NCBI GenBank assembly: GCA_963664705.1
Contig: OY761556.1
Location: 736,001 to 800,000, forward strand
Length of the DNA stretch: 64,000 bases
Source of the DNA: Acidobacteriota bacterium
GTDB taxonomy: Bacteria > Acidobacteriota > UBA6911
Direction: 5' to 3'
Numbering within the stretch: position 1 is the stretch's first letter; every line of letters begins with the position of its first letter. The position numbers and the translations under genes are program-made. Of this stretch, positions 21,368-39,119 are shown in pieces. Under the pieces are notes generated by a model. That model saw only the letters and a program-made list of their open reading frames with translations. It searched no databases and was not told the DNA's origin.

Positions 21368-21544
21368 TGAAACGACATATCATAATGTCTGTAATAATTT
21401 GATAAATATAATGATAATATGTAGATAGTCTTATAAGCGGCTGGCATTGTCTGCCAGGAAAGGGAGGGGAAGAAGAAGCGTTGGCTGCGTGAGTTCCGCG
21501 GCATTTTCATTGCCCTTCGGGCAATTTGGTGTATATTTGGTGCT

Positions 21545-21666
21545 GTGTTCTTCGGGGCGAGGTGGAATTCCTCGACCGGCGGTGACAGCCCGCGAGCTTT
21601 GGTTAACGAAGCAGAACCTGTGCAATTCAGGTGCCGACGGCAACAGTCCGGATGGTAGAAGGATCG
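21545..21666 (+). ncRNA. FMN riboswitch (RFN element)
   Basis: TTCGGGGCGAGGTGGAATTCCTCGACCGGCGGTGACAGCCCGCGAGC...GCCGACGG..AGTCCGGATGGTAGAAG. P1 is GTTCTTC/GAAGGAT. Lies upstream of ribBA. Confidence 0.95.
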
Positions 21667-21693
21667 ACGACTTAATAGGATAGTCCCTCCATC

Positions 21694-23072: not shown

Positions 23073-23108
23073 AAGGCCTGAAACGATGGTTTCAGGCCTT
23101 TTGTATTT
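23073..23108 (+). terminator. Intrinsic terminator after ribBA
   Basis: 12-bp stem AAGGCCTGAAAC/GTTTCAGGCCTT followed by TTGTATTT. Confidence 0.8.
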
Positions 23109-23148
23109 GGCATTGACACGTGAAAAGCTAGATGCTAATTATTTGCAT

Positions 23149-23718
23149 GTGAGAAATATTTCCAACAACGGAATACCGGACGATCAGGAGGTGCGGAGCT
23201 ACTTCCTGGAGCAATGTCGGTCCCGTGGTATTCGGGTTACCACCCAGCGCCTGGCGGTTTTTCAAGCGCTGGCACAGACCGCCGATCACCCGACCGCGGA
23301 TTCCTTATATGCGCGGCTGCGAAAATCGATGCCGGCGCTGTCCCTCTCCACCGTATACCGAATTCTGGAATCTTTGGAAGGCGAGGGATTGATCCGTCGC
23401 GTGATTTCTACCAATGGCATTGTCCGATATGACGGCAACCATCGCCCGCATCAACACCTTGTATGTCGCGTTTGCGGACGCATAATTGATATTACGGATG
23501 CATCCCTGTCGGAACTGCAGATGCCCCGAGTCGATCTTGCGGGATTTGTGGCGGAAGAGCTTGAAATAAGAATTGTCGGAACGTGCACAGACTGCCTTTC
23601 GGCGCTGAAGTCACTGAGTCAAACAGGTCGTCAAAAAGGAAAACTTCCGGGAGGTAATCGATCTCCCGCAAAAAGGAGAAAAGGGAATGGCCGAATTGAA
23701 AGGTTCGAAAACACATGA
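23149..23718 (+). CDS. Fur/PerR family transcriptional regulator
   Basis: RVTTQR, HPTAD, SLSTVYRIL, HQHLVCRVCG and GTCTDC motifs. The track ATG at 23086 falls inside the terminator loop, so GTG 23149 is proposed (start uncertain). Confidence 0.88.
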   Translation: MRNISNNGIPDDQEVRSYFLEQCRSRGIRVTTQRLAVFQALAQTADHPTADSLYARLRKSMPALSLSTVYRILESLEGEGLIRRVISTNGIVRYDGNHRPHQHLVCRVCGRIIDITDASLSELQMPRVDLAGFVAEELEIRIVGTCTDCLSALKSLSQTGRQKGKLPGGNRSPAKRRKGNGRIERFENT

Positions 23719-24106
23719 AAATCTCAAAGCCGCATTTGCCGGTGAATCCCAGGCAAATCGCAGATATCTATATTTTGCCAAAATAGCGGATGTGGAAGGT
23801 TATCCTGAGATCGCCGGCAACTTCCGTGAAACTGCGGAAGGGGAAACCGGCCATGCACATGGTCACCTGGATTATCTGAAGAAGGTGGGCGATCCTGCAA
23901 CGGACCTGCCCTTTGGTGATACAGTGGATAACCTCAAATCGGCGGTGGCCGGAGAGACGCATGAATACACCGACATGTATCCGGGGATGGCCAAAGCGGC
24001 AAGGCAGGAAGGGTTTGCTGAAATTGCGGACTGGTTTGAAACGCTGGCCAAAGCGGAGAAGTCGCATGCCGGGCGATTTGCGCAGATGCTGAAATCCATC
24101 AGCTAG
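23687..24106 (+). CDS. Short rubrerythrin (no rubredoxin domain)
   Basis: LKAAFAGESQANRRY, ETGHAHGH, GETHEYTDMYP and AEKSHA diiron motifs. Confidence 0.95.
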   Translation: MAELKGSKTHENLKAAFAGESQANRRYLYFAKIADVEGYPEIAGNFRETAEGETGHAHGHLDYLKKVGDPATDLPFGDTVDNLKSAVAGETHEYTDMYPGMAKAARQEGFAEIADWFETLAKAEKSHAGRFAQMLKSIS

Positions 24107-24120
24107 TAAAAATCAGATGA

Positions 24121-24154
24121 TTTGATCCGGGGGGGGATGCCCCCCTGGATCAAA
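24121..24154 (+). other. Strong intercistronic hairpin after rubrerythrin
   Basis: TTTGATCC-G-run/C-run-TGGATCAAA. Confidence 0.65.
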
Positions 24155-24216
24155 CATACTCTTGTTCGGCTCCGTGGGATTCCCGGCGGTGCCGGCAAAT
24201 TCGGGATATTCGCGCC

Positions 24217-25557
24217 ATGAACGATACAGAGAAAACCATTTCCTATCAGCCTACCGAGGGTCTGTCCTACGATCCCGCCGAGGATAGATACTGGAACCAG
24301 GGACTTCTTGACAAAGAGATACAGCGGATTTTCGAGATTTGTCACGGATGCCGCCTCTGCTTCAAATACTGCGATACTTTTCCGAATCTGTTTTCCCTGT
24401 TGGATCAGAAGCATGACGGTAACGTACGGAAAATATCGGCGGATGAGACAGGGCAGATTCTGGATACCTGTTTCCAGTGCAAGCTCTGCGAAGTGAATTG
24501 TCCTTATACGCCGCGGGATCATCACGCCTATATGCTTGATTTCCCCAAGATGGTGAGCCGCTTCCGCGCGATCAGGGTCCAGCAGCACGGTATGTCGCTG
24601 AAAGACCGGTTTCTCGCCGACCCTGATACAAGCGCAAAGCTGGCAAGAGCCAGCCTGGGCCTGGCAAATATTGCGAATCGGATGCGGCCCCACCGGATCT
24701 TCATGGAGAAAGCGCTGGGAATTCACCGGGACAAGCTTCTTCCGGATTTTGCGAGCCAGACCTTCGAGAACTGGGCTGAGAAGACGGGACGAGTTGTGAT
24801 CTCTCCCGGTTGCGAGGCGGTGCTTTTCCAGACATGCTTCGTCCAAAATAACGACCCGGAACTCGGAAAAGATACGATTTCGGTTTTCGAAAAAAATCAG
24901 GTAGATATCAAATGCGTGAAAGGCCTGTGCTGCTGTGGAATGCCGGCCTGGGAAAAAGGGGATTTGAAATCGCTGCGGGCGCAGGCAAAGCAGAATCTCG
25001 AGATTCTGTTTCCCTTTGTCGAGAAAGGCGCCAAGGTAATAGTCATCAACCCGACCTGTTCGATGATGTTCCGACGTGAATACCTGGAACTTGTGTCGCC
25101 GGAAGACAGGGAGATGGCCGGAAAGGTCGCGCAGGCAACCATGGATCCCAGCGAGTTTTTATGGAGCATCCGTGAAGAATCTCGATTCTGCGCGGATTTC
25201 AAGAGCACTCCGGAAGGCCCCGTGGCCTATCATGCTCCATGCCATCTTCGAGCGCAGGCCATCGGTTTCCGCGGCCGGGACCTGCTGCGCAAAATCCCGG
25301 GAGTGAAACCCGTTCTGGTTCAGGAATGCTGCGGCCACAACGGAACATTTGCGATGACGGTGGAGGGGTTTGAACCTTCCAGCCGGATTGGCAAAAAGGC
25401 GTTTGATGCCATGCGCGAGGCGAACGCGGCTCTCTGGTCGACCGACTGTCCATTGGCGTCCATTCAGTTCCAACAGCATGCAGGTGTCAAACCGATGCAC
25501 CCGATGTCGATTCTGGCAAAGGCCTATCGCCAGGACGGCTTTGACAAAAAACTGTAA
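24217..25557 (+). CDS. Rubrerythrin-associated Fe-S oxidoreductase (GlpC/HdrD-like, CCG domains)
   Basis: CHGCRLCFKYC, CFQCKLCEVNCPY, CCGMP, HAPCH and CCGHNG motifs. Confidence 0.9.
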   Translation: MNDTEKTISYQPTEGLSYDPAEDRYWNQGLLDKEIQRIFEICHGCRLCFKYCDTFPNLFSLLDQKHDGNVRKISADETGQILDTCFQCKLCEVNCPYTPRDHHAYMLDFPKMVSRFRAIRVQQHGMSLKDRFLADPDTSAKLARASLGLANIANRMRPHRIFMEKALGIHRDKLLPDFASQTFENWAEKTGRVVISPGCEAVLFQTCFVQNNDPELGKDTISVFEKNQVDIKCVKGLCCCGMPAWEKGDLKSLRAQAKQNLEILFPFVEKGAKVIVINPTCSMMFRREYLELVSPEDREMAGKVAQATMDPSEFLWSIREESRFCADFKSTPEGPVAYHAPCHLRAQAIGFRGRDLLRKIPGVKPVLVQECCGHNGTFAMTVEGFEPSSRIGKKAFDAMREANAALWSTDCPLASIQFQQHAGVKPMHPMSILAKAYRQDGFDKKL

Positions 25558-25578
25558 CGATAAAGGGTTTGCCACAAT

Positions 25579-26136
25579 ATGAGAGCCGTGAACAGAAGTG
25601 AAATCCTCGATTATGTCAGTTACGAGGAGAATCGGGCCGACATCCAAAAAAAGGTATTTCCAGCCAAAGCCCGCAGGCGGATACACCTGGGGGAGCACTT
25701 TACCTTTCTTTTTGAGAATGCTTTGACCATCCGTTACCAGATCCAGGAGATGATGCGGGCCGAAAAGATTGTACGGGAGAAGGATATTCAGCACGAACTG
25801 GACACCTACAACGATGTTTTGGGTGGCGACGGCGAGATCGGATGTTGTCTGATGATCGAAGTCGAAGATCCGCAGCAAAGAAATCTGAAGCTCCGGGAGT
25901 GGCTGGATCTGCCAAAGCATCTGTTCGCTGAACTGCCGGATGGAACGAAGGCATATGCCCGTTTCGATCCCGCGCAGGTCGGTGTCGATCGCCTTTCCTC
26001 GGTTCAATATCTGAAGTTTCCGGTTGGCGGGAAAGCACCGGTTGCTCTTGGTAGCGACTTGCCGGGATGCGAAACCAGGGGAGTGTTGACCGAGGATCAG
26101 AGAATCGCACTTCAGGAAGATCTTTTGGAAAAGTAA
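25579..26136 (+). CDS. DUF3501 family protein
   Basis: FLFEN..TIRYQIQEMMRAE, ELDTYN and SSVQYLKF motifs. Canonical position after rubrerythrin and the FeS oxidoreductase. Confidence 0.88.
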   Translation: MRAVNRSEILDYVSYEENRADIQKKVFPAKARRRIHLGEHFTFLFENALTIRYQIQEMMRAEKIVREKDIQHELDTYNDVLGGDGEIGCCLMIEVEDPQQRNLKLREWLDLPKHLFAELPDGTKAYARFDPAQVGVDRLSSVQYLKFPVGGKAPVALGSDLPGCETRGVLTEDQRIALQEDLLEK

Positions 26137-26197: not shown

Positions 26198-28225
26198 CTA
26201 GGCGTTGCCCAGTTTGCCTCTTGCTGCCATGGTGTCGGCCATTTTCTTCATGCCGTAACCTTCCAGGGTTTTCCTGGTCGGCCAGCCATGTTCTTTGTCC
26301 CAGCCTTCCAGTGCATAGTAATGATCTTTGAAATCATTGACCCCCTTTCGATCCATGAACATCTCGGGGGCCAGGTCGGAACGCCACTTGCCGTTTTCGT
26401 AGATCGGAACGCCGCCCCAGAAGGTCATGCCGGAGGCGCCGGGCTTGTACATAAATGGAGCGAGGTCTTCGGTCTGACGGCTTCTGCCATGCATGACGCG
26501 AATCGCGCGTTCCAAAGTCCAGATCTTCTGGCCGATCCGAATGGTATCGGCAAAAGAGTCCTTCTTCCCTGTAACCGCGGCATAGTACTTCATTTCGACA
26601 TCGGGGCTCAGCGTTTCAAGCGTAGGCAGGAACATTTCGCAGAAAGCCATCGATTCGTTCCAGAAGGAAGCATAATGGCGGCTCCAGGCAACTTCTTTGG
26701 CCTTATGCGGCGAATAGATCCCGGTTTTCCAGGCTTCTTCGCCCTTCCACGCGTAGTTGAACATGAAGATATCGTCGGTATAAGGGATGGTTTTCTTCGA
26801 CAGTTTGGTCAAAGATTCCTCGAGCGTACCCTCTCTGGGGGCCCCAACCGCGGTAACCAATCCGTGCCAGCTTGGATCGCCTGCGCCGAGCATGTAGTTG
26901 TAGGCCCATTCGGCGCTGGGTAGCGTCCAGTGACCGGTGGCGCCCCATGCCGGGAAGCGCAAAGCTCCGCTTTCCAGATCCTTTTCCAGCCGTCCCCATT
27001 TCTGGGCGGCACGCATACAGCCCTCTGCCAGGATATCGCCAATGCCTGTGCGGCGCGAAATGGCATCCAGCATGGCTTCTCTGAATGACAGCTCACCCCA
27101 CTGATCGAGCGGCAGTGGAGCCGAATCGATTCGTTTGCCGGGGCCGAGATCGCCGATCTCATAGAGGTACCGGAGGTACCATCCGATTCCGGTTTCCACC
27201 GGCACCTGCTTGTGGAAAAATTCTGGCGCGCCTGGGATATCGGAAACAAACAGGCCGAGGAAGTGAGCGGACCAGCCGCTGGCTCCATACCGCATCAGGG
27301 CTTGGGCTGCCAAATCCTTGGCGGTATCGCCGCGATCGCTGAGCCAATGCTGATCGACGCACATGGTTTCGCCGGCGTTATAGGAATTCCTGCGCCGATC
27401 GGCCCGGAGGCACGGGTTGCAGGAAGCGGATCCGGCGCCGGCAGGCGCGAAGCTCCCGGTGACAAGCCCGCCGCCTGTCATCTGCCACAGCCTTGCGTCC
27501 AGGATAGCCTTGGGATTGGCAACCCGAACGTTGCCGCTGCCTGTTACGCTGATGGCCTTGAGGTTCTTGGCGCCAAAGACCGCGCCATAGCCGCCGATGC
27601 GTGCGCTGACTCCGCTGCCATGAATAAGAGAGGCCAGCCTCGATTTCGCTTCGCCCACTGGACCGATGCAGACAATCTGCGGTATGCCGGTGGTATAGGA
27701 TTCGCCGAGCTTCTGCCATTCTTCGCCATAACGTGTTCTGCCGCCGACCATGGATGCGATCCGGGTCTGTGTTTCCCAGGTGTCCATGCCCCAAAGCTCT
27801 TTGGCATCTTCAATTTTAACCTGGTCATTGATGATGTTGATCCAAACCGGTTTTTCGGCTTTGCCTTCCACGACCACGCCGTCCCAGCCGGCTTGCTTCA
27901 TCATCGTGCCGAAACGGCCCCCGAAGTTGCCTCGCCAGAACTCGCAGGTTGGAAACGTTTCCGGAGAAATGCCGCAGATGTTGGTTCTGCCGGCTCCTGG
28001 AACGCCTGTAGCTGCCAGCGGGCCCGCCATGATGGGAAGAACATGTCGCGGGTCATAGGGATCCTTCAAATCCCAGTCGCCGGGAGCGACCGCAAGATCC
28101 CAGAAGATGGCGGCGCCCATGCCATAGCCGCCACCGAATTCCTCATATTTAGCGGTATCGATCGTGCTGGTTTGTTTCGTCGTCAGATTGACTCGCAGTA
28201 TCTTTCCTGTAAATCCGTTAGCCAT
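26198..28225 (-). CDS. Aldehyde:ferredoxin oxidoreductase family (W-pterin) catalytic subunit, divergent
   Basis: GFTGKILRVNL, GGRFG..MKQAGWD..VEGKAEKPV, CIGPVGE, GAVFGAKNLKAI, LAEG and YYALEGWD..GWPT motifs. Confidence 0.88.
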   Translation of the reverse strand: MANGFTGKILRVNLTTKQTSTIDTAKYEEFGGGYGMGAAIFWDLAVAPGDWDLKDPYDPRHVLPIMAGPLAATGVPGAGRTNICGISPETFPTCEFWRGNFGGRFGTMMKQAGWDGVVVEGKAEKPVWINIINDQVKIEDAKELWGMDTWETQTRIASMVGGRTRYGEEWQKLGESYTTGIPQIVCIGPVGEAKSRLASLIHGSGVSARIGGYGAVFGAKNLKAISVTGSGNVRVANPKAILDARLWQMTGGGLVTGSFAPAGAGSASCNPCLRADRRRNSYNAGETMCVDQHWLSDRGDTAKDLAAQALMRYGASGWSAHFLGLFVSDIPGAPEFFHKQVPVETGIGWYLRYLYEIGDLGPGKRIDSAPLPLDQWGELSFREAMLDAISRRTGIGDILAEGCMRAAQKWGRLEKDLESGALRFPAWGATGHWTLPSAEWAYNYMLGAGDPSWHGLVTAVGAPREGTLEESLTKLSKKTIPYTDDIFMFNYAWKGEEAWKTGIYSPHKAKEVAWSRHYASFWNESMAFCEMFLPTLETLSPDVEMKYYAAVTGKKDSFADTIRIGQKIWTLERAIRVMHGRSRQTEDLAPFMYKPGASGMTFWGGVPIYENGKWRSDLAPEMFMDRKGVNDFKDHYYALEGWDKEHGWPTRKTLEGYGMKKMADTMAARGKLGNA

Positions 28226-28240: not shown

Positions 28241-28978
28241 CTATGATTTCGGCGCCGGTTTGGCGCTTGGCGTTCCTGGCTTGCGTGCCGGCATCTTTGG
28301 ACGCGGCGGCTCGAGATTAACGTCGTACCCGGATACGTCCTCTTGCGGAGGCGCTTCATGCACCAGCTTGAGAGCCTTGGACGGGCAGATCGTAACGCAT
28401 GCCGGTTCTCCGTTGGGACCGCCCTTTTTGCTCCAGTTGGGCGCATCAATGCACAGGTCGCATTTGGAGGATTTGTTTTTGTACGGATTCCAGACAGTCC
28501 GATGCGGTCGCTGCGGGCAGGATTGGATACACATCTTGCAGCCCACGCACTTTTCCTGGTCGATCACACGGACATTGCCGTGTTCCGCATCCACGTGCGC
28601 CGCTCCAGTAGGACAATTCTGAACGCAGAGCGGTGAAACGCACTGCCGGCAGGGAGCCATTACAACATCGAACGGATATTTCGTAAACGATGGCGCATCC
28701 CGGATGATCTGGATGCGGGACAGGGTCGGATTTGCCTCTCCCTGGTGGCTGGTTGAACAGGCAAACATGCAGCTCTGACAGCCCCAACATAGACGGCTAT
28801 CGTAGACAATATATCCCGTGGATGCAGGATAGGATACCGATGCAGGCGAAGCTGCGGCCGCAGTTCCCGGAACGCTGACCGTCAGCGCTCCAGCCGCCAG
28901 AGCGGCCCCGCTGCCGACCAGAAATTCGCGCCGGAGTACCATCTTTTTCTTGCTTTCGGCTTTTTCGGATTCAGCCAT
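28241..28978 (-). CDS. Tat-exported 4x[4Fe-4S] subunit (DmsB/AorA-like)
   Basis: LRREFLVGSGAALAAG Tat signal. CWGCQSCMFAC, CRQC..LCVQNCP, CVGCKMCIQSCP and KCDLC..CVTICP. RBS AGGAG. Confidence 0.9.
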   Translation of the reverse strand: MAESEKAESKKKMVLRREFLVGSGAALAAGALTVSVPGTAAAASPASVSYPASTGYIVYDSRLCWGCQSCMFACSTSHQGEANPTLSRIQIIRDAPSFTKYPFDVVMAPCRQCVSPLCVQNCPTGAAHVDAEHGNVRVIDQEKCVGCKMCIQSCPQRPHRTVWNPYKNKSSKCDLCIDAPNWSKKGGPNGEPACVTICPSKALKLVHEAPPQEDVSGYDVNLEPPRPKMPARKPGTPSAKPAPKS

Positions 28979-29276
28979 AGAGCAGTCTCCTAATGAGTGA
29001 ATAAATACAATGGAGGTTTGGGTTACAGGACTCCAGGCTGCATTGACGCAGACACGTACGCCTAAGCCTTGAGCCGATAGATTAATTTGTCTGTTGTTAT
29101 GATGCCCGCGTGCGGCATAAACCACACTATTGCCAAAATTCTGTCCCTCTGTTTAAAAAAGAGACATATTAATACAAAAAATAACAAAATAAACCAAATT
29201 AGAACAGTGTGGCGGGTTGTTGGGGCGGGAAGGATAATAGCTCAATTGGCCTATGGTATTAGCCAAATGGCAAATT

Positions 29277-29328: not shown

Positions 29329-29919
29329 CTATTTCTTTTTGGATCGAATAGACATTTCTTCTGAAACCCTGGCATCAATGAACACCAGCGGTTTGCCGAC
29401 GCGCTTGATGACCAACGGGCAGTGGGGAGTATTTGCGGGAATGAAGAAATAGCAGGGATAATTGATCTTTCGAACCTTGTCTCCCAGCAGCATTTCGCAG
29501 TCCGCATCAAATTCGAGGAAATTTTTCGAATTTCCGCCGATCAGGAATATCCATTGATCGTGAGGGTGGGAATGAGTGTCGCCGCCCAACGTGTCCGGCG
29601 TGGTGATGTAGGCGAATCCTACCGCAAGGTTGGATTCAGGAATATCCTTAGCGCCCCAGGATGTGATCATCGGGGAGGTGATCGTTTTGTGAATGGACCT
29701 CCACGGCTTGAATTCGACAACGCCGGGTTCGCGGACGACATTCTCCAGCTTGCTCATGTCCATCTTGTCGTTGTAAGTAGGCTTTTGAGGGCTGGCAACA
29801 GCTGCCGAATTCAGCGTGGACAGCACGCTGGCAAATGCCATACCGGCTGCGCCTGCGGAAACGTTTTGAAAGAAATCCCTGCGGCTCGAGTTTTTCTTGT
29901 CGAACTCATCAAAATTCAT
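29329..29919 (-). CDS. Tat-exported cupin-fold protein
   Basis: SRRDFF Tat motif. Cupin-type metal motifs HSHPHDQ and FIPANTPHCP. RBS GGGAGG. Confidence 0.8.
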   Translation of the reverse strand: MNFDEFDKKNSSRRDFFQNVSAGAAGMAFASVLSTLNSAAVASPQKPTYNDKMDMSKLENVVREPGVVEFKPWRSIHKTITSPMITSWGAKDIPESNLAVGFAYITTPDTLGGDTHSHPHDQWIFLIGGNSKNFLEFDADCEMLLGDKVRKINYPCYFFIPANTPHCPLVIKRVGKPLVFIDARVSEEMSIRSKKK

Positions 29920-30079: not shown

Positions 30080-31648
30080 TTACGGCAGATCAAGCATCTG
30101 CCGCCAGCCCAATCCGGGAGAATCTGCGGTTCTGGTTCCGGCGATATTGCCTTGATTATCCATCCAGTGGTAATCGGAGTAGTTTTCTATCTTATACTGC
30201 CTGCCGCTTGCCGGATCGACGACATCAACCGTTCCGAGAATGGCATTTTCGCGTTTGCGGGATATCTCATCGTAGGTGGCCTGTCGTTGGTTATATCCGT
30301 TAACAATGATGTCGGACGTGGCACGCAGATCTTCCTGAATGGCTCGCAGCGCGCGCTGCTGGATCTGTTGGCTGCGTGCGTAGTCCTGCTGAACCGCCGC
30401 TGCCGAAATTTGCCTTTGGCGGTTTTCCCATCCCGGATCCAGCCGGAATGAAGATGCGACTTTCTCGCAGACGGCTTTGGCCGGCTGTATGGATTGAGTG
30501 GGCGCCAGGACTCCGAAGAGATTCTCCACGTACCACAGGCCCCCCTGCATGGAAGAATAGGCGACACGCGTCACTGCGGCGACGTACCCTTCCAGGGAAC
30601 GCCCGTTCACCGTACAAGAAAAGGCAACTTCCCCTGCCGTGGTCTCGACGCGTGCAATGCCGGGAACCATTTGGGAAGGCGCTGCCAATTTGGTGAGTTC
30701 CGGGCGATTGCCGGTTGAAAGAATGCGGAGGTTCTGACACTGGCCGCGCATTGTATTCTCAACATAGTCTCTTGCGAATTGTTCACCCGAGAGATAGCCT
30801 CGAATCAGCAGTTTGCTGCCATCACCCAGCGTCGTATAAGTGCCTTCGCGCATTCCTAGCTGGGAATACATCGGTGTCGGGAGGGTAAAGGCAGGGATAT
30901 TGGCGTCCCCGTAAAGGATCCGGACTTGCCCGTCCGGGGAAAAGAGGTTCACCCCTTTGCGGATGTCGGTTGCAGTGAAGCGATAAGCTCCACCAAGGGC
31001 TTTCCAGCCTTCCGGCACGGCAAGGGTGAAGGCACTTTCGTTCGGATCCATCCATTGGACATATTTGGGCGAAGCGGCAAACCCGCTATTGATGGGTGCC
31101 TGTTTTTCGGTGGCGCTTTCGATGCGGAAGCTTTCAAAAACTCGTGCGAACATATCTGCGGAAGTCCGATAGCTGCTCGCGGGTGCCGACGAGGCATAGA
31201 CGCATACCTGGGCTCCAATCGGCTTATTGGTCCACGTGAGCAGCAGGACGCCTTTGCGCTGAGCCCCTCGGGCGGTTAGGCGGACAAAATTGGAGGTATT
31301 TTCCGGCGGGCCCCAGGCGGCTTGTGGATCCAGCCTGGGAGCGATTTGCCTGGCAAGCATGCCGGCGGAATTTGCATCCAGCTGTTGCTGAGGAAGAAAT
31401 GTCGGCCAGATTGCCGACTGTTCGCCCTGGGTGCCTTGTACCAGGATTCGCCCGGTCTGTTTCTCTGTACGGACATTCCACCCGGCCGGAATCGCGATGG
31501 TAAAGCCGGCGGAATCTCGGTGAGTGCTCCAGCCGCTCGGCAGTCCGGATGTCGTTTTGGCGGCAGATGGGGCTGTCGTGTTCTGTTCAGCGGAAAAATT
31601 GCAGGATGCTCCCAAAAGAAGGAGCAGAAGACAGGCAAATGGCTTCAT
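30080..31648 (-). CDS. Hypothetical lipoprotein with two repeated domains
   Basis: Lipobox LLGASC. Repeats GFTIAIPAGW and AFTLAVPEGW. Gln-rich helical segment. RBS GGAGA. Confidence 0.75.
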   Translation of the reverse strand: MKPFACLLLLLLGASCNFSAEQNTTAPSAAKTTSGLPSGWSTHRDSAGFTIAIPAGWNVRTEKQTGRILVQGTQGEQSAIWPTFLPQQQLDANSAGMLARQIAPRLDPQAAWGPPENTSNFVRLTARGAQRKGVLLLTWTNKPIGAQVCVYASSAPASSYRTSADMFARVFESFRIESATEKQAPINSGFAASPKYVQWMDPNESAFTLAVPEGWKALGGAYRFTATDIRKGVNLFSPDGQVRILYGDANIPAFTLPTPMYSQLGMREGTYTTLGDGSKLLIRGYLSGEQFARDYVENTMRGQCQNLRILSTGNRPELTKLAAPSQMVPGIARVETTAGEVAFSCTVNGRSLEGYVAAVTRVAYSSMQGGLWYVENLFGVLAPTQSIQPAKAVCEKVASSFRLDPGWENRQRQISAAAVQQDYARSQQIQQRALRAIQEDLRATSDIIVNGYNQRQATYDEISRKRENAILGTVDVVDPASGRQYKIENYSDYHWMDNQGNIAGTRTADSPGLGWRQMLDLP

Positions 31649-31783
31649 GAAATCATCTCCGGGCAAGATTCTGTTATGCAGATGCACTTCTTCTTTTCGT
31701 TGTAAGAGAGCATATCGGCAATTGGGGCCAAGACCTTCATATTCCGGAGTGCGGGTTTACTGCAGGAGCGTTCCGCCCGTCGA

Positions 31784-31835
31784 TTCCAGATTCCCAATTG
31801 CAATCCGCAATCAGAAATCTGGAATCCGGAATCTG
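31784..31835. repeat. Degenerate heptamer tandem repeat
   Basis: aatccgc aatcaga aatctgg aatccgg aatctg. Confidence 0.6.
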
Positions 31836-31839
31836 TCAG

Positions 31840-33594
31840 CTATTTCCAGGCGTCAATAGAGACCCCTTGACCGGTCATGAAATCGGTGATGAACCAGACG
31901 CTTGCCGTGCTGCCTCCGACCACAATCGTCCGGATATTTCTGGGATTGGGCAGGTGTTTGATCAATGCATCATTCGATACTTTCTGCCATCCGGCATAGG
32001 GTTCCAGCCCCTGTTTTCCCATTGGAGCCATCATGCCCGACGCAATGGAGTTGGCCCAGTAAACGCCTGCGGGCACTTCCGAATTCTTGGACAGCCACTC
32101 GGAGAATGCCTCTTTGGTTTGAAAGCCCTGCGCGGTCTTAAGCAGCTTGGCGACCGACGGGTCCATAATAAGCGTTGCGGCTCCCGTTGCCGCGAGTACG
32201 CGCGTGAAATCGCGCATCAATAATTGTGGCGGATAATGCTCCACGACGGACCCCGAGCAATTCACGAAGTTCCATCCCGAGAACATGGAGAGAACGCTTT
32301 CCTCCGCTTTGTGCCCCATCTGTACATGAATGGGTTTCCAGCCCTCCGGCAGAGCCTCCTCATTTTCCGCGATGGTCACATTGTTGTAGCGCAGTGGATT
32401 ACTCAGGGAAGAGAATCCGGTTATGCCCTCGATGTAACCCTGCAGAGCGCTATGCATCAGGGTCATCGCTCGACCAATGACAGAATTAGCTTCGGCATTC
32501 GGCCCCAGGGCGCCCTCTCCCGAGTTCATTCCGATTTGTTTGCGAATCGGTCCGTTGATCAGCACCATGCTTGCATTGGATGTGGTGGAATCCATGAAGG
32601 GAACCTGGGTAGACAAGGCCAGCAATACAGGCATGTATTCAGGCTTTGCCCCAGCCATTACACCGATGATTGCTACTTTTTCAACTGTAAATGGACGGAT
32701 AGTTCCAAAGACGCCGGCGTCTTTCTTGATCAGTTCATCCGGCTTGTGGCTGGTGCCTTTGAGCATTGCCTTCACTCTCTCTTCGGTTGGGAGAATGACA
32801 GGATTGTAGTCCGTCCAGCCTTTATCCTTGAACAGCCGCTGCAGATTGTCTTCCGTGTCCGGAGGCAAAAATCTGGGTTCGGGGGCTGACTCGGAAGGAA
32901 GCCCGGTTTTCTTTTCCTCGGCGGTCAAGGGCCTGGTCAGATTGTCGACAATCGCCTGCATCAAGGGTTTGCCGCTGACTTTGTCTCTGCCGTCGAGATA
33001 GGATTTCAGGCTGTCTTTACTGAGGCCAGTAAAAGGATACGGTACGCCAACCCAGCGGAGCGGCATGCCGGAGTTGTATTTGAAATAGGCGTTCATGCCA
33101 TAGTTCACGACGTTTTCGTTCGCGAGCGGTACGGTGGGAATGCCATATTGTTTTTCCAGGGTCTGAGAGAAACGGCTCACGGCCGATAGGCATCCCCATC
33201 AGCCAGCCACGCCGATGATGGCGGCGCTGCCCTTATTGGCGCCGATCTCCTTCCACAAGGCCGGATCATCCGCAACGTAATTGCCGCTTTTCAGCTTGAG
33301 AATGGTCTTTACGCCAGGCTTGTTCTTTGCAAACCAGGCCTGCATTTCCTCCAGCACCGGAAGGCGGCCGAATCCTTCGTAGTTCGTGTCCACAATATAA
33401 ACGGTTTTGCCTTCAAGCGCGTCAAGCCGTGGAGCCAGGGGAATTCGCTCGGCAAGTTTGTCTGTGAGACCAGGACTCATAACCGTTATTTTTTCCTTGG
33501 ACGCGTCACCTGCGGCATGAGATGGTCCGATGCTGCATAGTACCAGGCCCGCGATCGCCAGCAGGCTATACAACAAGAGCGGCGTTCTTTTCAT
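31840..33594 (-). CDS. Secreted UGSC-like selenoprotein (584 aa, Sec132 in UWGC) formed by UGA read-through joining track ORFs 33199-33645 and 31840-33180
   Basis: GCT GGC TGA TGG GGA TGC CTA TCG GCC GTG reads AG-U-WGCLSAV, in frame with the downstream ORF. LAPRLDALEGKTV, LEKQYGIPTV, GWTDYNPVILPTEERV..ML, MAGAKPEY, NGPIR, ANSVIGRA and ENEEALP..W motifs. Signal peptide after GGAGG. Confidence 0.85.
33171..33198 (-). promoter_or_regulatory. Candidate bacterial SECIS hairpin
   Basis: CGGC-CGTGA-GCCG stem-loop at +14 to +26 after the UGA, with GU in the apical loop. Confidence 0.5.
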
Positions 33595-33716
33595 TTTTCC
33601 TCCACTGAGATGACCGTTGGCGGCCATGTCCACAGTCGTTGCCATACAAGAAAAGCATTGATTAGGAAATTGAGGCTATTGTAACGAAAACGGGAATTAT
33701 GCGATAGCAAAGATCG

Positions 33717-37184: not shown

Positions 37185-39119
37185 ATGCGCGGAGGGAATG
37201 GATCTGGCGAGAATATCGGATCAGGATCTTCTTTGAACCGGGTGAAATCGTCTATCGTTGCAGGTCTGGCAAACCTGACGTGGAAAGCCTTCCAGGCGAT
37301 CAACACACTTGTACCGGAAGGAGAACTCCCGCAGCCTTCCTGGGCTCCCGACAAGATATCCAAGAGCAGGGAACGCTCGAAACCGCCCCTGGGTTTTCCC
37401 AGGGAGACAGACTCGCTTTGCCCCGTTTGCGTTCCGGAGATCAGGAAACAGATCGTTTCCGGCGAGGCGAATCTCGATGTCCTCATCAAAAGCCATCCTG
37501 GCGAAATCAAGGCGCAGCTTGTGGAGGAAAACGGCCGGATCTTAATCCGGAAGGTTTGTGATAAACACGGGCCGTTCGAAGATGTCCTGTCCACAAATCC
37601 TGCCTTTACGCGGCGCGTTGAAGATCTGTTTTTCGGTCGCGATTTTCAGACCGTCCAGGATGAGAATTTGCATCGGCACGGCGCCTCTTCCATTCTCTAT
37701 GGTCGGGGAACTGTTCTGACTGTTGACCTGACCAACCGTTGCAACATGATGTGCAACCCCTGCTTCACGGATGCAAATCAAGTCGGGTATGTGTGCGAAC
37801 CGAGCCTGGAAGAAATAAAGGCGGTGCTCGACCGGGCGGTTTCCTTCAAGCCGCGCAGGCAGATCATCATACTGTTCTCAGGCGGAGAACCTACACTTTC
37901 GCCTCATTTTCTTGAAGCGGTTGCCTACGCCAAAAAGATTGGTTTTTATCGAATCCTGGCGGCGACCAACGGCATCCGGTTTGCCCAAAGTGAGGAATTC
38001 ACGCGCCAGGCAAGGGATGCCGGGCTGCACGGCACGTACCTGCAGTTTGACGGAATCAGCAACGAAAAGAACCAGCATCGGGGTGTGAAGAACCTGTTCG
38101 ATGTGAAGGTTCAGGCGATTGAAAACATGGCCAGGGTCGGCATGAAGACGACACTGGTTACCACTGTTGTCAACACGGTGAACCAGGAGGAAACCGGTCG
38201 AATTGTCGATTTTGCCCTGAACAACGTGGATAAGGTGCAGACAGCGGTTTTTCAACCGATTTCCTTCACCGGGCGGGACGAGTCCATCGATGACGCCTCG
38301 CGGAATAGACAGCGATACACGCTGTCTCAACTGGTTGAAGATCTAAAACGGCAGTTGCGCGGGAAAGTGGAGCCCATGCGCGACTGGTTTCCACTCTCAA
38401 CCTACAGTGCGTTTACCAGCATTATGGACATTCTCCAGGGACCGGCTGCCTCCTGGGGGTGGAGTGCCTGCAACTGTCATCCCGATTGCGGCGTCTTTAC
38501 TCTGCTGGTGGTCCATCGGCAAACGCGCGAATGGATTCCTTTGTTCAAGTTCTTCGACTATGAGCAATTTATTCGTGATGTGAAGATCATCACGGACACG
38601 GCAAGAGGAAAAACGCTCACCGAGGCACAGCTGGCATTGGCTATTTTGAGAAACTTCCGTGCAGATCAGGCCCCCAAGGGATTTCCAATCTCCCAGGTCG
38701 TCAAGCTGTTCCGGCCTAATTCCGAAAAAGCAGACAGCGATCGAAATGACCGCATGAAAACGCGCTCATTTGAAGATGAGTGGCGCGTTTTGTGTGTCGA
38801 GGGGATGTGGTTCCAGGATCTGTGGACGTATGATTTTCGAAGAACCGAGATGTGCGTCATCCCCTATGGCACGCAGGAAGGGGAGATTTCCTTTTGTGCT
38901 TATAATACCGGAATCGGCTGGCGCCAGATCGTGGAGACGCGACATCAGACCGCACACCTCTCGGATTGGTATAAGGAAAAGGGAAAGCACGAAATCTATG
39001 CAAAGGGAAGAGAAGTAGAGCTGAAAACCACCCGGCACGACCTTATCCTTCCCGTCCTTCAAAATGAAGAGATAGGTGTTTCGAAAGAACGATCGACGGC
39101 ATCGGTTAAGTCAAAGTAA
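37185..39119 (+). CDS. Radical SAM enzyme, tetraether lipid synthase (Tes/GDGT-MAS, MJ0619-like) homologue
   Basis: N-terminal TDSLCPVC..CDKHG metal site, DLTNRCNMMCNPCF, SGGEPT, YLQFDG, FQPISFTGR, CNCHPDCG, and GMWFQDLWTYD..R..MCVIPY..ISFCAYN. Confidence 0.85.
   Translation: MRGGNGSGENIGSGSSLNRVKSSIVAGLANLTWKAFQAINTLVPEGELPQPSWAPDKISKSRERSKPPLGFPRETDSLCPVCVPEIRKQIVSGEANLDVLIKSHPGEIKAQLVEENGRILIRKVCDKHGPFEDVLSTNPAFTRRVEDLFFGRDFQTVQDENLHRHGASSILYGRGTVLTVDLTNRCNMMCNPCFTDANQVGYVCEPSLEEIKAVLDRAVSFKPRRQIIILFSGGEPTLSPHFLEAVAYAKKIGFYRILAATNGIRFAQSEEFTRQARDAGLHGTYLQFDGISNEKNQHRGVKNLFDVKVQAIENMARVGMKTTLVTTVVNTVNQEETGRIVDFALNNVDKVQTAVFQPISFTGRDESIDDASRNRQRYTLSQLVEDLKRQLRGKVEPMRDWFPLSTYSAFTSIMDILQGPAASWGWSACNCHPDCGVFTLLVVHRQTREWIPLFKFFDYEQFIRDVKIITDTARGKTLTEAQLALAILRNFRADQAPKGFPISQVVKLFRPNSEKADSDRNDRMKTRSFEDEWRVLCVEGMWFQDLWTYDFRRTEMCVIPYGTQEGEISFCAYNTGIGWRQIVETRHQTAHLSDWYKEKGKHEIYAKGREVELKTTRHDLILPVLQNEEIGVSKERSTASVKSK

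Follow-up and report, generated by a model that had tools for sequence, protein, structure and literature searches.

The question raised by this locus is whether two neighbouring open reading frames in the genome of an uncultured Acidobacteriota bacterium are indeed two genes, or one gene in which a stop codon has acquired a second meaning. The window analysed is a stretch of 64,000 nucleotides (nt) of contig OY761556.1 (positions 736,001 to 800,000), and the gene concerned occupies window positions 31840..33594 on the minus strand, from an ATG at 33594 to a stop codon at 31840. An earlier reading based on the nucleotide sequence without database searches (the sequence-only reading) had proposed that an in-frame UGA in a U-W-G-C motif joins both annotated frames. 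This is what we find: there is a single frame of 584 codons, and codon 132, a TGA (33199..33201, minus strand) in the context AIIGVAG-U-WGC-LSAV, is its sole internal stop. It is virtually certain that the two apparent genes are one gene, encoding a fusion of a UGSC domain and a domain named Unknown_1, of which the internal UGA is read as selenocysteine (U132).

Recoding is near certain because the genome possesses the machinery for selenocysteine insertion, the TGA is invariant and followed by frozen hairpin codons, homologues with cysteine at the same position exist, and the Pfam UGSC model extends across the TGA. The TGA is found in all 34 distinct orthologues of the UWGC subfamily, relatives give full-length matches with one TGA, and 31 of the 35 paralogues in the genome carry TGA-x-x-Cys. 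Cys135 (33190..33192, minus strand), which likely acts as the resolving cysteine, is present in each of these 31. A Shine-Dalgarno sequence, GGAGG (33599..33603, minus strand), lies 4 nt before the ATG, and the starts of the orthologues coincide with it, several directly after a stop codon. The GTG at 33180, annotated as the start of the 446-amino-acid downstream frame, has no canonical Shine-Dalgarno sequence, as noted before, and is located in the loop of the hairpin discussed below. The suggestion to look for cysteine at the UGA position in homologues was also fruitful. A profile search gave 8757 matches, and among 150 listed representatives 64 span the site, of which 18 have C-x-x-C, in some cases mirroring selenocysteine forms (VGH-C-STC, VGD-C-GSC). 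Membership of the UGSC family, proposed earlier, is borne out by Pfam PF24696, which spans the TGA with 36.5 bits against a cut-off of 25. Database orthologues are annotated as fragments of 430-447 amino acids in all of the best 120 of 2312 matches. Public contigs from two runs on one sample, possibly the source of this DNA, are identical to the gene, with zero differences.

The hairpin CGGC-CGTGA-GCCG (33173..33185, minus strand) is located at +14..+26 from the UGA, at the place that the sequence-only reading had given, and its four stem pairs are retained in 34/34 orthologues. According to PMC13188914, the model for a bacterial selenocysteine insertion sequence (SECIS) places the loop 16-37 nt downstream of the UGA and requires a G at one of its first two positions. 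The loop found here, CGUGA, begins 17 nt past the UGA and has a G followed by a U, which fits these rules for loop and spacing. Codons +5..+8, which are exactly those of the hairpin, are each represented by one codon in 97-100% of the 34 orthologues, while none of 208 comparable columns reaches 95% (mean 61%). It is because of this codon conservation, and not because of folding energy, that the hairpin is regarded as more than a chance structure. An outer helix of +1..+10 with +55..+64 (33135..33198, minus strand) had been considered possible as well. All ten pairs can form here, but conservation among the orthologues is partial, and since the other positions are largely fixed by the WGC and GIPT codons, this helix is still unproven.

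Several observations speak against the assignment of a recoding signal. The isolated hairpin (-5.1 kcal/mol) has no more stability than expected by chance (p=0.19 when compared with synonymous shuffles) and falls short of the -7.5 kcal/mol of the SECIS model, which is passed when flanks are included; whole-region folds give z values of -0.4 to -2.2. Two positions of the outer helix are kept in only 12/34 and 21/34 orthologues. Covariation at a fixed register, calculated for 23 of the 31 paralogues, is weak: a register with a 4-nt loop does no better than shuffles, and one with a 5-nt loop is equalled in 7-8 of 500 shuffles, which common descent could produce by itself. Loop size varies by subfamily, and synonymous shuffling of the TGA paralogues gives p<0.05 in 13 of 31.

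Five paralogues with a U-G-S-C-T-K motif (L048, L060, L061, L062, L063) lack the short hairpin and have in common a longer stem, AAAGTTCCTCG...CGAGGACTTT, whose loop is approximately 30 nt away from the UGA; comparison with synonymous shuffles gives p<0.05 in 3/5. This is possibly a second SECIS form.

A search for selA, selB, selC and selD, which the sequence-only reading had recommended, returned two of each above cut-off in the genome (6.89 Mb in one contig, 98% complete, 6% contamination). The selC genes are two tRNA-Sec genes, one selD has its own TGA, and a third RF01852 match is called tRNA-Ser by ARAGORN. The second selB-selA-selD-selC cluster (3066000-3085000 of the contig; L067) is found beside genes for a corrinoid protein, an MtaA-like methyltransferase and AcsV-like proteins, after which comes an ArsM-like gene that contains a TGA in frame (STUIAGA); the SelD of this cluster has a cysteine-rich C-terminal extension that looks AhpD-like. 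The idea that this second kit serves the expanded family was rejected, as two selA matches occur in only 5/30 genomes of the genus; the setting, among genes for corrinoid methyltransferases and for a selenoprotein resembling ArsM, also counts against it. An attempt to count all selenoproteins de novo was too noisy to claim a total: only about half of the known copies were recovered among many false candidates, and the motif patterns applied missed even the TGA of SelD.

The family and the fusion are already known, and in this respect the novelty was overrated in the earlier reading. The UGSC/Unknown_1 fusion has been in print since 2008 (PMC2398784, Fig. S1A), a fused selenoprotein without evident signal peptide is present in the supplement of PMC12013277, and PMC13188914 and PMC1976440 describe the UGSC family without an assigned function. 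In our protein the UGSC domain covers residues 38-197 (33004..33483, minus strand) and Unknown_1 residues 236-584 approximately (31843..32889, minus strand), of which residues 308-357 match, by eye, the Unknown_1 block printed in the 2008 figure. Common to this protein and the published fusion are a UGSC domain above the Pfam cut-off, U-x-x-C, and the attached Unknown_1. The protein differs by its UWGC motif, its signal peptide, the replacement of the conserved cysteine of Unknown_1 by alanine (MAGA for MAGC), and a score of 20.7 bits with the equivalog model NF041046 (UGSC_fam), far below the cut-off of 125. There is no other conserved cysteine in the UWGC subfamily, and U-G-S-C itself occurs in 7 of the 31 TGA paralogues. 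These 31 selenocysteine copies in one genome compare with a single sequence in the Olavius set. In other bacteria UGSC and Unknown_1 are separate genes (L101-L111). At non-acidobacterial loci (L102, L107-L110) such separate genes adjoin selB (5 of 26 loci) and sometimes selA, and two homologues (L037, L097) are frameshifted or split within the UGSC domain.

The structure model of the protein is confident, with a predicted local distance difference test (pLDDT) value of 90.9 and a predicted template modelling (pTM) score of 0.89. In one of its domains five beta strands alternate with alpha helices, and U follows the third strand. Most of the best structural matches are to domains of CheY/flavodoxin-like or other Rossmann type; no thioredoxin fold around U/CxxC was found among the top 50. 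The UGSC part is predicted to have a flavodoxin-like fold, with U132 at the N-terminal end of a helix and packing against Unknown_1. The latter is modelled with confidence and is without a clear match to a solved fold; its conserved residues include D262, S336, N370, R375, E410 and E412. A sequence search of the Protein Data Bank (PDB) gave no match.

The protein is probably exported via the Sec pathway, judging from its N-terminus. Residues 1-27 (33514..33594, minus strand) have a basic N-region, a hydrophobic core and small residues at the likely cleavage site, in agreement with the signal peptide proposed earlier; here and below, signal peptides were judged by eye and hydrophobicity. The N-termini of 32 of the 34 orthologues are similar (one weakly), the other two being cut by contig ends. 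Export signals are present in 28 of the 31 TGA paralogues (27 of Sec or lipoprotein type, one of the twin-arginine translocation (Tat) type; three without). The rarity of exported selenoproteins other than dehydrogenases, as put forward before, was overestimated, since reviews list SaoB/SaoX and BtuF as extracytoplasmic, and exported copies are the rule in this genus.

The paralogues represent an expansion that is specific to the genus. Searches with tblastn, our own profiles and Pfam agree on 35 fused copies in the genome, of which four have no stop at the site. All 29 congeners searched have the family, with 9-24 matches each as lower bounds, against 1-2 matches in 7 and none in 24 of 31 other relatives (G046 being counted as one outgroup row in this and the other relative-genome tallies, i.e. 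PF07355, selA, AFOR and PF09338). A full Pfam search of four congeners gave 58, 45, 23 and 18 matches, and two in a sister genus, although such match numbers are not exact gene counts. In the congener with 58 matches (G028, 8% contamination) about 41 have TGA by our own count. The close orthologues are labelled Acidobacteriota. A quick tree of 84 rows shows old subfamilies that are shared with other lineages and one recent burst of four copies; its UWGC clade has 100% support and includes sequences labelled Desulfobacterota.

What could such a protein do? The sequence-only reading had envisaged a 584-residue periplasmic selenoenzyme. The frame and the recoding of that proposal are well supported, whereas export is a by-eye prediction and the enzymatic role is inferred. 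A lead comes from the selenoproteins of glycine and proline reductase. With hhalign, the N-terminal domain of the paralogues aligns to 14 selenocysteine domains of PF07355 with 94% probability and a pairwise E of 1.4e-7 over 71 columns, selenocysteine on selenocysteine, while controls gave 0.1% and 0.7%; two members of the alignment also have weak NCBIfam matches to GrdF, GrdB and GrdH (E 0.013-0.071). The shared pattern with GrdB/F/H and PrdB is U-x-x-C, a helix, E-x-x-G-I-P-T, a strand and P-x-P. From this alignment it is likely that the UGSC selenocysteine domain is related to that of GrdB/PrdB rather than to thioredoxin. Differences are the absence of a PF07355 match (none at E<=1 for the protein or 49 relatives), the fusion to an unrelated domain, the predicted export, and the lack of a detected GrdE/PrdA partner. 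PF07355 itself has no match in the genome, while the same search was positive in 77/301 genomes of the phylum. A search of the genome for the acceptor GrdA gave no match, nor did its controls, and a GrdB-like query found nothing among PDB sequences.

In glycine and proline reductase, selenocysteine attacks a substrate carbon, after which a thiol forms a selenenylsulfide (PMC10298544, PMC10838667), and substrate-specific GrdB paralogues exist, one without a pyruvoyl partner (PMC10838667). By analogy we tentatively propose, at somewhat less than even likelihood, that the protein is a periplasmic enzyme for reductive cleavage of the GrdB/PrdB kind. A small organic substrate would be bound with the aid of Unknown_1, and attack by the selenolate of U132 on an activated carbon of this substrate would break a C-N or other C-heteroatom bond. 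Cys135 would then release the product while a selenenylsulfide forms. Instead of a GrdE/PrdA subunit, Unknown_1 would determine specificity, and the approximately 31 copies would differ in the substrate that they accept. Re-reduction in the periplasm could proceed, in the UWGC subfamily, possibly via a neighbouring Tat-exported tungsten/molybdenum (W/Mo) oxidoreductase pair, and otherwise via DsbD, for which one gene is present in the genome.

This oxidoreductase pair consists of a WorS-like Fe-S subunit carrying an RR motif of the Tat type (28241..29125, minus strand), 2.7 kb downstream of the selenoprotein gene, and an AFOR-family large subunit (WorL-like; 26198..28225, minus strand), 3.6 kb downstream. 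The pair resembles class V WORs, in which WorL occurs with a Tat-signal WorS, as in E. coli YdhV/YdhY (PMC13328260): the nearest model of the large subunit is YdhV (PRK09849), below its cut-off. Unlike in class V, no membrane subunit is seen beside the pair. This AFOR copy aligns poorly to solved AORs past the N-terminal domain. AFOR-type genes occur within about 8 kb at 8/20 UWGC loci (one frameshifted) versus 0/20 loci of sister subfamilies, and at all seven UWGC loci labelled Desulfobacterota or Deltaproteobacteria, in five of which the gene follows directly downstream in tandem. A locus labelled Desulfatiglans has such a tandem of selenoprotein and WorL genes. Among the paralogues of the genome, 8/35 have an AFOR gene within 10 kb, where 2.3 are expected (p=0.004; p=0.007 for 5 kb and p=0.02 for 20 kb). 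Copies of the AFOR family number 24 in this genome, 8-25 in 29/29 congeners and 1-3 in 2/31 other relatives. Both families are expanded only in this genus, within which their numbers correlate after correction for genome size (partial rho 0.56). A search of PMC13328260 gave no match for selenium or Acidobacteria.

A number of points weigh against this proposal. The GrdB match is limited to 71 columns surrounding the motif, and 14 of the 25 GrdB-like rows were picked by a U/C-x-x-C...E-x-x-G-I-P pattern, a selection that favours a match. The GrdE/PrdA-like partner (PF09338) has no match in the genome (it was found in 2/301 genomes), and Unknown_1 as a GrdE homologue, a candidate that we dropped, had no support (0.4-0.6% against three GrdE sequences, a comparison of low power). 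The co-location test was post hoc, devised after the pattern had been noticed, and kin are not independent; since moreover 12/20 UWGC loci have no nearby oxidoreductase, the relation is an association and not an obligate operon. Two different oxidoreductase clades are involved at these loci, and the co-expansion counts as one phylogenetic event. In most full-length homologues without selenocysteine (46/64 site-spanning representatives), C-x-x-C is absent too. Class V WORs face the periplasm and are without known activity, one that was tested showing no aldehyde oxidation (PMC13328260), and in the literature we found no precedent for direct electron flow from a class V-type enzyme to a selenenylsulfide. 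A scan for promoters and terminators, which was at chance level, likewise gave no support for an operon with the oxidoreductase.

Alternative functions have to be considered. The protein could be a periplasmic thiol/selenol oxidoreductase. Its U-x-x-C would then turn over with disulfides, sulfoxides or peroxides as substrates, or maintain metallopterin client enzymes in the reduced state, and Unknown_1 would select the client. Each of the 31 TGA paralogues retains U-x-x-C, which the model places at the N-terminus of a helix, and this would agree with such a role, as would the literature, in which UGSC is termed redox and likely thioredoxin-like, and the oxygen-sensitive W/Mo enzymes among the neighbours. 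However, the predicted fold is flavodoxin-like, and a set of 31 copies that have diverged and have a domain of 350 residues apiece seems to exceed what general redox upkeep would need. We consider this function possible, but less likely than cleavage of the GrdB/PrdB kind. A maturation or carrier protein that binds a metal, metalloid or cluster, where selenocysteine and cysteine are ligands for partner W/Mo enzymes, is unlikely: the UWGC subfamily has MAGA instead of MAGC and no other conserved cysteine, Sec-pathway export implies unfolded transport without cofactor, and most paralogues are far from a WOR. Still less probable is a periplasmic binding or sensing protein that captures a ligand covalently via selenocysteine, for uptake or signalling and without turnover. 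The large exported set, the TonB-type receptors and MFS transporters among the neighbours and the absence of selenocysteine from 4/35 paralogues suit such a role, but no conserved transporter or sensor partner was found among the loci compared, and the resolving cysteine is kept in every selenocysteine copy. Finally, it is hardly credible that the UGA really terminates translation or stems from an error in sequencing, so that the locus would encode two polypeptides or be a pseudogene, even though databases list 446-amino-acid fragments and the two domains are separate genes elsewhere, because the TGA splits a Pfam domain and a predicted fold midway, does not vary among the 34 orthologues, of which the hairpin codons are frozen, has uninterrupted cysteine counterparts, and is identical in the public contigs, which may share the source.

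The surroundings of the gene offer some further observations. Directly after its stop codon, at 31798-31835, a short element with GAATCTGAAATC-type repeats is found that recurs on a number of further contigs from the public runs mentioned above and resembles repetitive extragenic palindromic (REP) sequences. Directly downstream lies a gene for a 535-amino-acid protein with a signal-peptide-like start (30080-31687, minus strand), and between the selenoprotein gene and the oxidoreductase pair a gene for a Tat-motif protein (29329-29919, minus strand) with at least six paralogous matches in the genome; neither product has a Pfam match. The neighbours of other paralogues are mixed, including esterases, Mo-hydroxylases, TonB-type receptors and transporters (92 chosen open reading frames scanned). 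Elsewhere on the contig, an AFOR-family gene at 6583965-6584621 has an in-frame TAG inside the match, due to a broken gene, a sequence error or recoding. On the plus strand of the window, a flavin mononucleotide (FMN) riboswitch of ordinary type precedes a ribBA-like gene (21544-21667), and genes for a Fur/PerR-like regulator, a rubrerythrin-like protein, an Fe-S oxidoreductase and a small conserved protein (23086-26136) appear, from their translations, to form a cluster of the oxidative-stress type. A radical SAM protein encoded at 37185-39119 (plus strand) is nearest to the tetraether lipid synthase Tes (308 bits, cut-off 450). Tes homologues are candidates for the synthesis of membrane-spanning lipids in Acidobacteria.

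A literature search, with partial coverage of recent selenoprotein surveys, yielded no description of UGSC proteins that are exported or expanded, nor of a link of UGSC with GrdB or WORs. The aspects not found in the literature are the predicted export, the expansion in the genus, the GrdB/PrdB-related selenocysteine domain with its predicted flavodoxin-like fold, the C-terminal domain without a clear solved-fold match, and the connection of the UWGC form with a class V-like oxidoreductase. The scale is considerable: one family contributes 31 selenocysteine genes here and about 41 in congener G028, whereas the ten largest whole selenoproteomes in BSepDB, none from Acidobacteriota, comprise 46-63 genes (PMC13326102). 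Since such genes are usually annotated as split, the selenoproteins of genomes that carry them are probably undercounted.

It is conceivable, although fairly unlikely, that this uncultured genus runs an undescribed periplasmic catabolic network, in which tens of GrdB-related selenoenzymes, each with a specificity domain of new fold, cleave a variety of organic compounds, with electrons or products passing between them and the equally expanded W/Mo oxidoreductases. If so, two orphan families, UGSC and the class V WORs, would come to share a function, and this one selenoprotein family would be almost as large as the largest complete selenoproteomes on record. For the UGSC family, the results provide leads in the form of a likely catalytic kinship with GrdB/PrdB rather than thioredoxin, a candidate new fold, a candidate redox partner, and a secreted single-chain form that may be convenient for expression.
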